DNA of 64,000 nucleotides from Dictyostelium discoideum (GCA_000004695.1 CM000154.2:4160001-4224000); one strand, 5' to 3'; counted from the stretch's first letter, positions 19,788 to 37,485 are shown. The notes: a model not told the origin generated them from the sequence alone. Numbers and translations: made by a program.

Positions 19788-22700
19788 ATGTTAACTCATG
19801 ATTTGACCAAAAACTTGGGACGACCCTCTTTTTTACCTAAAGAACTAACTATTAGTGATTCTCAAGTTCAAAGGTTAAAAACTCCATGTTTTGAAGAAAT
19901 TATCCGTTCATTTTTAAACAAACGTAAACCAAAGCAAAATTGGCAATTATCATTAGAGATTGAAGAAAAATTATCAAATCCTACTATACTTGATATTTTT
20001 AAAACTATAAGAACCACAGAAGAGACAATTATTTCTGATGAATCATCAAGGGATTTTTTCATATATTCACTTTTAAAAATTGATTGGTATGTTATTATTA
20101 TTATTATAACTATTACTATTATTATTATTATAGTTATTATTCTTACTATTACTGTTATTATTATTATAATTATTATTTTATATATTTACTAATACATTAA
20201 ATTAGTTGTATTAAAGGTAATTTATTTAGTTATTATTCTGAAATGGATAGAACAAATATTAAAGATATAATTATTGGAAAAGGGTTGAAAAATAATAATA
20301 ATAATATAATATTGGGAAATTCAATTTTTTTTAAAAAAATAGTTGAAGATTTTTTAACAATGGCATTCGAACGTTTTTCATGGTATTGTGAAAATAAATC
20401 AACTGATTTATTGTTTTTCATATGTGTAATGTCAGAATCAAATGAACGTTTGAAGGAATTCTTTAACAAATTTCAAGACTATCATCATCATCATAACCAA
20501 TCGAAAACAGCTGAGCATTATAAAATTTCAAAAAGTTTAAATTCTCTACCATTTTCCATTTCAAATGGAGTCATTTCAAATGGAGTCAATCCAACAATCA
20601 AAATACAATGGTTTCTTAAATTTGTTGAGTTAAATTTAAAAAATCCAATTGTCTATCAATTATTTGATTACACAATAATAAATTACCCTTTTATTTCAAA
20701 TTTAAATATTTTGGTTGGTCCTATACTATTAAATATTTTTAATAATGACAATATTAAAATATATGAGGATAATAATAATAATAATAATAATAATAATAAT
20801 AATAATAATAATAATAATAATAATAATAGTACAATTGTAGATAAATTTAATTTAACATTAGAGTTAAAATCTAAATTAGCATTTAGTGTATATAAAAGAA
20901 AGTTAGCAATATGTGCAGTAACATTACCAATTTTAGTATTACACCTTCAAAAGGATCCAATTGGATTTCTAAAGTATTATGATGAATTTATAAAATCATC
21001 ACCAGAGTCAAAATCTTTATTCAATCATTCAATTTCACTTCATTTATCAAATGATACAAAGAAAATGTTTAATTTGTTACCATATAGAAATAGAATTGAT
21101 TTAGGTTGGGAATCATTTATTGTAAATAAACTAACTACGGCTGACAAGATTAATATACTCTCAACTTATGATGAAACCTATCAAGATGTAAAAGCAATTA
21201 TAATATGTTCATTAAATGTTGAATCTTATGCATTACTATCATTAGAAAGTAAATTATCCGATCAATTCTTAATAAATGTTTTCAACCAACAATGTAGATT
21301 ACCAAATAATTATAATTTCAGTGGTGTAATAACCTCATTTTCAACCATTGAGAGGGAATATGTCAGTCGTTTAAAGAATAGCATAGAACAAGAAGCAATT
21401 AAAAAGAAACAACTTATAGTTAAACAAATTGAAATGAATAGTGAAATTTATGAAAATTACTTTCGTATTGTAAATGTAATGGTTGAAGCATTACTCAATC
21501 AAAATCCATCATTAAATTCAATTATTGAATGTGTTGGAACTGATCTAGGTGGGAGCTTGGAACAAGATAATCAATATATGGATACATTACCAAATTTAGT
21601 ACTATTTTCACATTTATTAAGAAGAATCGCTACTTCAAATTTAAATTCATCATATTTATTAAAAAAAGATTCAAAAGGTAATAATAGATTGAATTTAGAT
21701 TTATCAAATTTGGCTATGTTTTATAATTCAAAAAATTCATTTTGGCAAGAGATTAGAGGACCTTATGATAGTTTCTTAAGGGAGTTTATAAAGAATTTAT
21801 TAGCAAAATATGTAGAGATTAAATCTGATTTCAAATATTTAGATTATCATTATTTTGAATCGTTAACTATCATTCTATTAGAAATGAAAAGAAGATATAA
21901 TTGTATACCATCCGATTATCGAGTATCAAATAAACCAGTTAAAATTGTTGAATTCAAAGATTTTATAAAGAAATTTGAAGAAAAAGAATCACAATATAAT
22001 GATTTATTATTGGTTAAAGAATATTTAGAAAGAAAATTTTCATTTAATTTTAGTTCACAATTTGATAAGAATTGGAAAACTTCAAAAAGATTAAAATTAT
22101 TAAGACAATTAATTAAATCGACTAAAAGTTTATATGGTCATTATATTCAAGATGATGAAAGTATAAAGTTTTTATTACATTTTGCAATAGTTAATAAAAC
22201 TTTATTCTTTCATGCAATTTTTGATTATTATTATTTGAATTCATCAGATCAGACTAATAGTAAACAATTAAATCTTGATCAATGTTTAAAAAGTACAAGA
22301 GAATTTTTAAAAAGATTAATTGAATCAGATTCTTCAATTCAATTAAATGATATATTTAAAAAGATAACAGAAATTACTGATATTAATTATGTTAGAGAGA
22401 TTGAACCAATTTATAATTATTTTAAAGGAAATGGTGAACCATATAAAAAGGAATTGGAAGAACAAATTCAAAAATTCATTGATAATGCAACTTTCTTTTT
22501 TGGTGTTAGAAAGTATTTACCACATATTGAAAAATTCATTGAAAGTTTAGATTTCATAGTTATTACAGATTTTAATAAAAAAAAAGCAAAGTGTGAAGAG
22601 ATTATCAAGAGTGTTTTTGAAAAGAATACAACTATCGCAGGTGCAAATGATGCTTTGATTTTATTGAAATCAATAATGAAGGATATCAATTTCATTCAGT

Positions 22701-36056: not shown

Positions 36057-37485
36057 AAATTGTAATCATAATAAATCAGATATTAAATTAGTAGAATCAC
36101 CAGAATATATATTTATTGAAGTTGAGAGATTTAAAAAAGGTCTTCCGTTCAATTCTAGTATTATAAACTTTGAAAAGAATATCAGTATATCAGAGTTATT
36201 GGGTAATTTTTCAAAAGATATTAATGGATTATATAATATTCAATCAATTCTTGTAAGTTTATAAATATATTTTTATTTTATATAATAATAATAATAACAA
36301 ACTAACTTTATAATTTATTTTTAGTCTTATGGTTCAAGAAATGATGAATTTGATTTTATTACAAGTAATGAAGGTCAATACTATCATCTTACTTCTAGTA
36401 GTTGCGTTAAAACATTGAATGAGTACAGTTTTAACGCAATAATAGAGTCACTCAACAACAACTGTAACTTTATCATTTTAAAGAAAGGTGGCTATATCAA
36501 AACAAGTCATATCAGCGATCCAGTTGATCCTTCTCTTTTAAATAAACCACCTATTCCATCAAGTGATAATGAAGAAGAAGAAGAAGATGATGATGATGAT
36601 GAAGTAAATGAAGATGAATATGAAAATGGAAATGAGGATGAAGATGAAGATGAGGATGAAGATGAAGATGAAGATGAAGATGAAGATGAAGATGAAGATG
36701 AAGATGAAGATGAAGATGAAGATGAAGATGAAGATGAAGATGAAGATGAAGATGAAGATGAAGAATATGAAGATGAAGATGAAGATGAAGATATTATTGG
36801 AGATGACGCTGAGGTTGAAAAAGAAAACAAGAATGGATTTTCTCATTTAGAATCACTACAAATTACACCAATACCTCACGACAAAGATGAAGAACAACCA
36901 GAAAAACCTCAACAACAAGAGATACATCAACAACCAGAGAAACCTCAACAACCAGAGAAACCACAAGAACTACAATCAACTGAAACACCAGGACAAGAAG
37001 TATCAGTTGATTATAAAATCCTTTATGACAGAAAAGCTTTCAAAGAATTTTTATACGGTGGATTCGAAAAATTCACTGAAGATTTGAAACTGCAAATCCT
37101 TGATGCCGGTATCAATTGTTTTTCAGTTTTATTAAATTTAAAGAGTGAAGACTGGTCAAAGTTTTCATTCTTACAATTACCAAAGAGAAATCAATTGGTA
37201 AATTCTTATAAGAAAATTCATAATGAAGCCATCAAAAAAGAGTATCCTTTCGAATCTCCTTTTGATATAGATGACCAAAAAGCCTACGAACAATTCCTTA
37301 AAGATATCGTTAATGATGAAAAAACTATAATGGATTTGGTTGAAGCTGGTTTTGACTCATTTACATCTTTAATTCCATCTGATGATGGCGGTTGGGAAGA
37401 AGTGTCTTTAAATTTACAAGAGATCCTTAAACCTGCGACATGTTTCAACTTAATCAATCAATTAAAATTGGTTGGAAAAGCATAA
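36057..37485 (+). CDS. Probable terminal exons of the giant AAA+ gene. Model: exon 36057..36252, intron 36253..36324 (GTAAGT…TTAG), exon 36325..37485. The product has an acidic (ED)n tract, PQQPEK repeats and two SAM-like C-terminal modules
   Basis: The frame of ORF 36415..37485 is open back to the acceptor at 36324, and the ORF-track start is TTG, not ATG. The upstream exon 36057..36252 is open from a stop at 36007 but contains no ATG. A GTTTGT at 35956 (two nt into the last codons of the giant ORF) and the TATAG acceptor at 36056 are phase-compatible (…SIKI-R-NCNHNKSDIKLVESPEYIFIEVERFKKGLPF…). No alternative start exists for this exon block. Confidence 0.5.
36636..36792 (+). repeat. (GAAGAT)n coding microsatellite, roughly 25 hexamer units, encoding a ~50-residue (Glu-Asp)n tract
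   Basis: Direct reading shows gaagatgaagatgaagat… with a few GAG/GAA variants. Confidence 0.9.

Follow-up and report, generated by a model that had tools for sequence, protein, structure and literature searches.

Gene structure of the locus

This analysis concerns a giant gene in a 64,000-nt stretch of Dictyostelium discoideum DNA (GCA_000004695.1 CM000154.2:4160001-4224000), called here the window, with positions counted from its first nucleotide. The gene lies at 19788-37485 on the plus strand, as do all of its features given below, and its predicted product is a homologue of RNF213 (mysterin). Human RNF213 is a giant ATP-driven ubiquitin ligase with broad antimicrobial action, and its gene is the major one for susceptibility to moyamoya disease. 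A preliminary description of the same DNA had proposed a giant multi-exon gene for a dynein/RNF213-type AAA+ machine, and this core reading was upheld. It had overlooked two elements, a USP-fold domain near the C-terminus, encoded across introns 2 and 3, and a relic of the RZ finger of RNF213.

The largest part of the locus is an uninterrupted open reading frame (ORF) of 5,240 codons (20243-35965), noticed already in that description. The four exons proposed there join in frame into an open coding sequence of 17,406 nt, which encodes 5,801 amino acids (aa) and a product of 672 kDa. Exon 1 (19788-20086; 99 codons plus 2 nt) carries the start codon. Intron 1 (20087-20205; 119 nt, GTATGT..TAG) has a guanine-plus-cytosine (GC) content of 0.10 and an in-frame TAA at 20198-20200. 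Exon 2 (20206-35955) holds the 5,240-codon ORF and is followed by intron 2 (35956-36056; 101 nt, GTTTGT..TAG, GC 0.079). Exon 3 (36057-36252) encodes NCNHNK..PEYIFIEVERF..YNIQSIL, which aligns with the orthologue block C.KC..PQYIFI..R..Y.L.S. Intron 3 (36253-36324; 72 nt, GTAAGT..TAG, GC 0.083) contains in-frame stops, and exon 4 (36325-37485) includes the TAA stop.

Composition, orthologues and an annotated gene in a second genome agree with this assembly. GC is 0.21-0.32 in the exons versus 0.08-0.10 in the introns, all three of which are of the GT..AG type, and the pattern GC1>GC2>GC3 over codon positions is common to all four exons. For exon 1, GC is 0.278 versus 0.098 upstream and 0.101 in intron 1, and the open frame of 134 codons found there is, by estimate, unlikely by chance in DNA of about 10% GC. 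The motif LLKIDC..N..YYSEM spans the junction of exons 1 and 2 and recurs, as a weak match, in the Synstelium protein P0015. In assembly GCA_054859355.1, labelled D. discoideum, the annotated gene at this place begins at an ATG homologous to position 19788, and its product has 5,778 aa. Compared with that assembly, exon 1 shows a sole indel of 18 nt, in frame, whereas intron 1 shows indels of 39 nt and 1 nt, whose net effect is not divisible by three. In exon 2, the first 1,188 codons have a ratio of nonsynonymous to synonymous divergence (dN/dS) of 0.33, no stops and exclusively in-frame indels.

The 5,240-codon ORF owns an ATG at 20243 and a TAA at 35963-35965 with an A/T-rich stretch behind it, as would be expected if the protein were this ORF alone and 36057-37485 and/or the upstream 99 codons were separate genes. 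Such a division is extremely improbable. The block downstream has no usable start, as had been remarked before: because exon 3 lacks any ATG and the first Met in the frame of exon 4 is codon 335, it does not stand alone as a gene. Orthologue proteins from four other dictyostelids, each of another genus, run unbroken over both 3' junctions. The USP fold would be halved: the second half of its zinc ribbon is encoded in exon 3, and exons 3 and 4 together encode this ribbon half and the region of the His box, which belong to a single folded domain. The low-GC introns with canonical ends and the sister-genome product that begins at the exon 1 ATG speak against separate genes as well. Read from the sequence, the locus is one four-exon gene encoding a protein of 5,801 aa.

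Directly before the start codon, about seven tandem copies of the heptamers ATATAAA/TATAAAA abut the gene (19735-19783) in DNA of 10% GC. This array may be promoter sequence or low complexity of a 5' untranslated region.

The AAA+ core

A Pfam scan of the whole protein, a check suggested in the preliminary description, yielded sub-threshold P-loop matches and nothing above the gathering thresholds. The matches comprised weak generic AAA_5, AAA_7 and AAA_22 hits and low-complexity artefacts (TFIIA, CIS_TMP) from polyglutamine/asparagine (polyQ/N) runs. A phmmer search against PDB sequences was more specific. It returned RNF213 chains alone (6tay, 6tax, 7oik, 7oim, 8s24 and others), with a best E of 1.2e-20 for 6tay, and the match spans AAA3, AAA4 and the following region of RNF213. 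The same search gave zero dynein or midasin matches, and with the C-terminal 2,440 aa it gave polyQ noise alone.

For segment-wise hhalign, an alignment of RNF213 was searched with separate, independent pieces of a profile built from 23 clade members. Their top matches appeared in strictly rising order along RNF213. A linker-homologous segment (22910-23578; protein 1002-1224 versus RNF213 1544-1775, E 7e-5, probability 62%) is followed by an AAA2-like module (24455-24793; protein 1517-1629 versus RNF213 2049-2157, E 2e-6, probability 89%) and by an AAA3-like module (25781-27301; protein 2220-2465 versus RNF213 2538-2772, E 3e-23), the lid of which has VSFRDI.R. The strongest match covers an AAA4-like module and then an AAA5-like region with RYMMLLDP..NRFEK (27407-28861; protein 2501-2985 versus RNF213 2788-3234, E 3e-59, probability 100%). 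A segment corresponding to the end of the AAA ring, AAA5/6, follows (28994-29905; protein 3030-3333 versus RNF213 3268-3498, E 3e-6, probability 88%). AAA1 and the hinge gave no significant match in this comparison; protein 3512-3686 versus RNF213 3644-3822 reached E 0.27. Three non-significant top matches, 3512-3686, 4065-4087 and 4307-4351, are also in the right order.

The three P-loops listed in the preliminary description were all found. GGTGTGKS (24455-24478, protein 1517) is the Walker A of AAA2, GDTGVGKT (25781-25804, protein 1959) that of AAA3, and GPPGCSKT (27521-27544, protein 2539) that of AAA4. An hhhhDE Walker B had been claimed after each of them, and the claim stands for the second (VVFIDE, 26570-26587, protein 2222) and the third (VVHLDE, 27740-27757, protein 2612) but fails for the first, which is followed by FFIHFNIS with no acidic pair and no Walker B. 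The two modules said to carry AMNP turned out to be one: AMNP occurs in AAA3 (26693-26704, protein 2263), and AAA4 has IIILSN..LDAAKTNR, with ILSN..LDAAKTNR at 27845-27892. AAA3 and AAA4 keep Walker A, Walker B and the sensor-1 Asn. In the first module, FFIHFNIS aligns to IFHFDIT of RNF213 AAA2, and the RNF213 counterpart of its P-loop is GVGKS. The AAA2 of RNF213 has ATP bound and lacks a Walker B (PMC7311170).

Signatures common to the amoeba protein, vertebrate RNF213 and two RNF213-like proteins of protist or metagenomic origin emerged from a motif alignment. AAA2 is marked by G.GK[ST] followed by hHF[DN]I without Walker B, and AAA3 by G[DE]TGxGKT, hhFhDE.NT, A[AM]NP and the lid VS[FIL]RD. 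AAA4 is marked by IPhhhVG.PG.SK[ST], VVhLDE.GL, P[LM]K.[LM]H and SN..LD.AK.NR, and the region after it by RD[FY], RNF.G and NRFEK. The same pattern has been reported for mouse RNF213. Among the clades named in the preliminary description, the protein is, by these sequence criteria, specifically an RNF213 homologue and not a generic MoxR/dynein ATPase.

Between Walker A and Walker B of AAA3 there is an insert of about 260 aa (25805-26569, protein 1967-2221) with a 23-residue polyQ. A shorter insert occurs at the same place in all dictyostelid orthologues, and none is present in RNF213 or in the protist RNF213-like proteins.

With dynein heavy chain and midasin the protein shares an AAA_5/AAA_7-type sensor region and, if its ring is complete, six AAA modules in one polypeptide. 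A mechanical remodeller in the manner of dynein or midasin, with no connection to ubiquitin and working for instance in ribosome biogenesis or on the cytoskeleton, would fit the weak generic Pfam matches, and its resemblances to USP and RZ modules, both without catalytic residues in this species, would then be irrelevant relics. This is nevertheless very unlikely. RNF213 chains are the sole significant PDB relatives, and neither VWA/MIDAS, dynein heavy-chain families nor a coiled-coil stalk was detected; unlike dynein and midasin, the protein shows no microtubule-binding domain. Moreover, the C-terminal body described next is specifically homologous to RNF213-like proteins, and several paralogues keep the USP domain with intact Cys and His.

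The helical body behind the RZ position

Homology to RNF213 is not confined to the ATPase. An alpha-helical body (33338-35146, protein about 4478-5080) has its counterpart in the stretch between the RZ finger and the C-terminus of RNF213-like proteins. When a 110-row clade profile was compared by hhalign with a 13-row profile of RZ-bearing RNF213-like proteins, the body aligned with a probability of 98.7% and E 1.5e-16 over 516 columns, reaching the last residues of the RNF213-like proteins. With hmmsearch, the protist RNF213-like protein P0005 (5,525 aa) was matched at E 4.3e-5, and in the segment-wise comparison with the 23-member profile, protein 4556-4805 matched RNF213 4775-4997 at E 1.5e-4. 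A segment-wise run with five sequences had given no match for the C-terminus, which became significant once the clade and RZ sides were deepened. By profile comparison, a helical body of the E3-shell/CTD type is present and collinear with RNF213-like proteins independently of the AAA core. Since the ordered segment matches and this body extend beyond the ATPase, the protein can be regarded as an RNF213 homologue over most of its length.

The RING and RZ-finger region

RING, MIDAS and a dynein stalk are absent, as the preliminary description had stated. Pfam finds no RING, RZ finger (PF20173) or VWA/MIDAS in the protein at E<=0.1, there are two CxxC in the whole protein (3996 and 5306), and a RING regular expression was negative in every clade member scanned. 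The expression C..[GS]H..C..C..C, which describes the RZ zinc site, is absent from the protein and from all 27 large clade members scanned. As P0005 is also without a RING, the RING may be a later addition elsewhere rather than a loss here.

At the position where the collinear alignment puts the RZ finger of RNF213, the protein reads YFPACDVGNIFRDCAMIY..TMGY (32951-33046), with a conserved cysteine, Cys4362, encoded at 32990-32992. More distant clade members read, for example, FCPGSDNRGNHDCGFKYDQWTNKLTPPIMGD at this position. Across 48 clade sequences the D-C-G of the motif is conserved at 94/85/92%, and the cysteine is one of just 16 columns at or above 85% among the 1,134 positions of the C-terminal profile. 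The C4525/C4528-type zinc ligand pair is gone from the clade, and there is no conserved His. In human RNF213, zinc is bound through C4505/H4509/C4525/C4528 and catalysis proceeds through C4516/H4537, and the E3 activity depends on the RZ finger, not on the RING (PMC11549300). DCG may correspond to the catalytic E-C4516-G, as its spacing suggests, or to the second CxxCG, with which hhalign pairs it. The region appears from its sequence to be an RZ relic that has lost zinc ligands and retained one strongly conserved cysteine.

That cysteine raises the question of a still active, RNF213-type transthiolating E3, in which Cys4362 would be the ubiquitin-accepting nucleophile of a zinc-free RZ-derived loop and the USP domain in cis, active in some paralogues and dead in this protein, would edit or bind the product. 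The rank of the cysteine among the best conserved columns, its flanking segments, which are collinear with those of the RZ finger, and a spacing to (I/M)GG equal to that from C4516 to IGG in RNF213 (PMC11549300) are all in keeping with this, as are the RING-independent activity of RNF213 and the lack of a RING in P0005. Every clade member, however, lacks two or more of the four zinc ligands, including the equivalents of C4525 and C4528, and the general-base His is not conserved. The hhalign pairing places the cysteine at a zinc-ligand position and not at the nucleophile, the local similarity is not significant alone, and some members have Y or I instead of Cys. An active ligase of this kind is rather unlikely, though a serious rival to the preferred reading.

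The C-terminal USP-fold domain

Where RNF213-like proteins stop, the clade proteins continue with a domain of about 290 aa, which in our protein (35459-36489, protein about 5185-5470) is spread over exons 2-4 with introns 2 and 3. Pfam recognizes it below threshold in three of five orthologues, with UCH at 18.8-19.3 bits against a cutoff of 23.9 and Peptidase_C98 at 20.8 against 27. A profile of the region found no match among PDB sequences. In 1.8 billion sequences, the clade profile reached ordinary USP-like proteins with a CHSG..HYY- or CHKG-type His box at E 3.6e-4 and 6.3e-4. When a model of the orthologue P0001 was compared with the PDB by Foldseek, the first 50 matches were all of the USP fold (best E 1e-8), and 168 matches had E<=1e-3. 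According to this model, the domain adopts the USP fold of fingers, palm and thumb.

The clade has a Cys box of the form HC[LIF][FL]NW[LI]R[FY] (HC-LFNWLRF), and 11 of the 18 members aligned still have the catalytic Cys. The corresponding box of our protein is HY-LYYWIRYL, in which Tyr replaces the catalytic Cys. The His box of the clade, S[VI][LVM]CHED, compares with CHSG of ordinary USPs; its His is kept in P0009, P0010, P0012 and P0022 alone, which keep the Cys as well, and at its position our protein has SILSYGS, without the catalytic His. As judged from these residues, the domain is a catalytically dead pseudo-USP in this genome. Pseudo-USPs such as PAN2 (UCH domain) and Sad1/USP39 are ubiquitin or ubiquitin-like binding modules. 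Unlike them, the amoeba domain, whose ubiquitin binding is putative, is fused to an RNF213-type AAA+ machine, and some paralogues in other dictyostelids keep Cys and His. Across paralogues, the catalytic Cys and His are kept in a mosaic pattern.

The acidic tract and the tail

The acidic tract reported in the preliminary description lies at 36559-36816 and contains 70 Asp/Glu in 84 residues. It is missing or much shorter in orthologues. The two SAM-like modules proposed behind it correspond to two conserved helical modules of about 65 aa each (37024-37227 and 37273-37482); the SAM fold was not confirmed. Such modules recur one to three times in the tails of clade members, with the pattern F..WI..(8-12)..L...I(D)xF. 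The protein's own tail gave no Pfam match to SAM. Orthologue tails gave weak matches to SAM_2, with E 6e-4 (20.3 bits versus 20.5), and to SAM_1, with E 0.03. A tail profile of 18 repeats found no significant match in the PDB; its EF-hand hits (E 0.06-1) scored better than its SAM hits (E about 1.3-1.6). An AlphaFold2 (AF2) model of the tail had a predicted local distance difference test (pLDDT) score of 45.9, too low for use. The SAM label of these modules is therefore unproven.

Distribution in Amoebozoa

Of 91 relatives found in a search of a representative library, 33 reached E<=1e-30. All members are at most 34% identical to the protein over BLAST-aligned segments, and neither the protein itself nor relatives more than 50% identical to it appeared in the two protein searches. 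Exact look-ups of the 5,240-aa ORF and of a neighbouring ORF returned no entry. GPPG[CS]SKT is present in all large members, whose AAA3 P-loops differ little and in most cases read GDTGVGKT; none has an intact RZ finger or RING. Among dictyostelids, Acytostelium subglobosum has five paralogues, Heterostelium album and Tieghemostelium lacteum three each, Polysphondylium violaceum and Synstelium polycarpum two each, and Cavenderia fasciculata one. The three copies of T. lacteum are on one contig, and two of them have near-consecutive accessions. Other Amoebozoa with members are Protostelium nocturnum and the archamoebae Mastigella eilhardi and Mastigamoeba balamuthi. The genes are already in public annotations, unnamed; the products are called solely 'hypothetical protein' or 'AAA+ ATPase domain-containing protein'. 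The literature searched contained no account of amoebozoan RNF213 homologues or of an RNF213 body combined with a USP domain, which in this clade looks active in some paralogues and dead in others. Sequence comparison places the protein in an Amoebozoa-wide, multi-paralogue, uncharacterised clade of RNF213 homologues.

The clade also shows a lineage-specific expansion, with 2-5 paralogues of more than 4,000 aa per dictyostelid genome (P0003, P0009, P0012, P0022, P0023; P0002, P0013, P0020). Some of the paralogues are co-located on a contig with near-adjacent locus tags or accessions. Such an expansion of giant paralogues would fit conflict-driven evolution.

Comparison with RNF213 and RNF213-like proteins

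RNF213 has been described as a vertebrate protein (PMC7311170). The amoeba protein resembles it (6TAX, 7OIK) in size, about 5,000-5,800 aa, and in the order of parts, from the linker through a single-chain AAA ring to a helical C-terminal body that is homologous behind the RZ finger. Both have an AAA2 with Walker A only and AAA3 and AAA4 with Walker A plus Walker B, and they share the motifs G[DE]TGxGKT..hhFhDE.NT..A[AM]NP, VS[FL]RD, IPhhhVG.PG.SK[ST], P[LM]K.[LM]H..L, SN..LD.AK.NR, RNF.G and NRFEK. In contrast to RNF213, the amoeba protein has no RING, no detected RZ finger and no C4525/C4528-type ligands, and similarity in the N-arm is not detectable by segment-wise hhalign. It adds the AAA3 insert and, past the C-terminus of RNF213, the USP-fold domain, the acidic tract and the helical modules.

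Closer relatives of the AAA core than vertebrate RNF213 are found among RZ-bearing RNF213-like proteins of protists and invertebrates (E 8e-36), for example P0005 and P0099-P0108, which include Cercozoa and a sponge. They have the homologous post-RZ body, but their RZ finger, CPNGH..C..C..C, is intact, unlike that of the amoebozoan proteins, and P0005 stops at the point from which the latter extend into the USP domain. By its pattern of AAA2/3/4, its signature motifs and its C-terminal body, our protein belongs to the broad RNF213-like family; by the same comparisons it lacks the RZ zinc finger and RING of RNF213 in the strict sense, and the Cys, the His and the Pfam-threshold match of an active USP.

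Proposed function

The locus is probably one four-exon gene for an RNF213 homologue with an ATP-switch ring, eroded ligase elements and a dead USP domain as a putative binder of ubiquitin or ubiquitin-like proteins (UBL), acting in surveillance. By analogy with RNF213 (PMC7311170, PMC11549300), the ring would change conformation under the control of ATP and would not be a motor. ATP in AAA2 would be structural glue, and hydrolysis by AAA3 and AAA4 would control how the protein is recruited to a target surface or assembles there. The USP domain, like those of PAN2 and Sad1/USP39, could bind ubiquitin or a ubiquitin-like protein, and the tail modules may serve interaction or oligomerisation. With its known ligase elements lost or degraded and its USP domain inactive, this protein is most economically read as an ATP-gated scaffold or a ubiquitin/UBL reader. 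In the cell, the most likely role of such a protein would be ubiquitin-linked, cell-autonomous surveillance of membranes, lipid droplets, vacuoles or ingested bacteria in a phagocytic amoeba. The lineage expansion to 2-5 paralogues is consistent with such a role.

Several points weigh against this reading. The N-terminal 740 aa have no significant match in the segment-wise comparison, and protein 3400-4480, the equivalent of hinge, E3-back and RING, is not significant alone. At the RZ position the protein itself has D-C-A instead of D-C-G, and the alignment of the relic is ambiguous: hhalign puts DCG on the second C..CG (CxxCG), and the spacing suggests the catalytic E-C-G (C4516). The USP fold was modelled on P0001, which is 25-30% identical, with a low pLDDT of 52.7 and a predicted template modelling (pTM) score of 0.59. 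The immune or surveillance role is suggested purely by analogy, from RNF213, the phagocytic lifestyle and the paralogue expansions.

A bolder reading sees an ancient amoebozoan sister lineage of RNF213, in which a zinc-free RZ-derived D-C-G loop and a USP domain in cis with the AAA ring would have formed an ATP-gated ligase-deubiquitinase, ancestrally active, repeatedly duplicated and degraded, and used in cell-autonomous defence. It is distinctly unlikely; if true, it would put RNF213-type immunity before the split of animals and amoebae.

Under the preferred reading of an RNF213 homologue with eroded ligase elements, the protein is a useful and somewhat unexpected model-organism handle on RNF213 biology, though no novel type of machine. 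Pairing a conserved ring with missing or remodelled known ligase elements, collinear homologues in Dictyostelium and its relatives would offer a haploid, genetically tractable phagocyte for the study of the RNF213-type ATP switch.

The surrounding window

The GC content of the window is about 20%, a value that fits a dictyostelid, and no tRNAs were found in its 64,000 nt. Window positions 9000-24000 are 92-95% identical in DNA to GCA_054859355.1 JBTAPG010000020.1, labelled D. discoideum, with a synonymous divergence (dS) of about 0.12. This divergence looks large for two isolates of one species; either genome may represent a divergent lineage or a sibling species.

Upstream of the giant gene, an ORF of 834 aa (11373-13877, plus strand) has SPX and EXS domains (E 1e-91) like those of the phosphate exporters XPR1/PHO1. 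Its D. discoideum counterpart ACTFIW_008634, with 97% identity, is annotated with 927 aa, so that the gene probably has further exons. A second ORF of 834 aa (47118-49622, plus strand) was considered as its duplicate because of the equal length; the two are unrelated by BLASTP.

Two regions are strongly strand-asymmetric in composition, with a GC skew of +0.42 at 40-42 kb (40001-42000) and of -0.34 to -0.44 at 46-50 kb (46001-50000). They overlap the ORFs at 40324-41616 (minus strand) and 47118-49622, both without a Pfam match. Of the two minus-strand ORFs at 55431-57137 and 49815-50912, one has an N-terminal B-box zinc finger (E 3e-6) and the other an ABC-transporter ATPase domain (E 3e-14), the latter being probably one exon of a larger gene.

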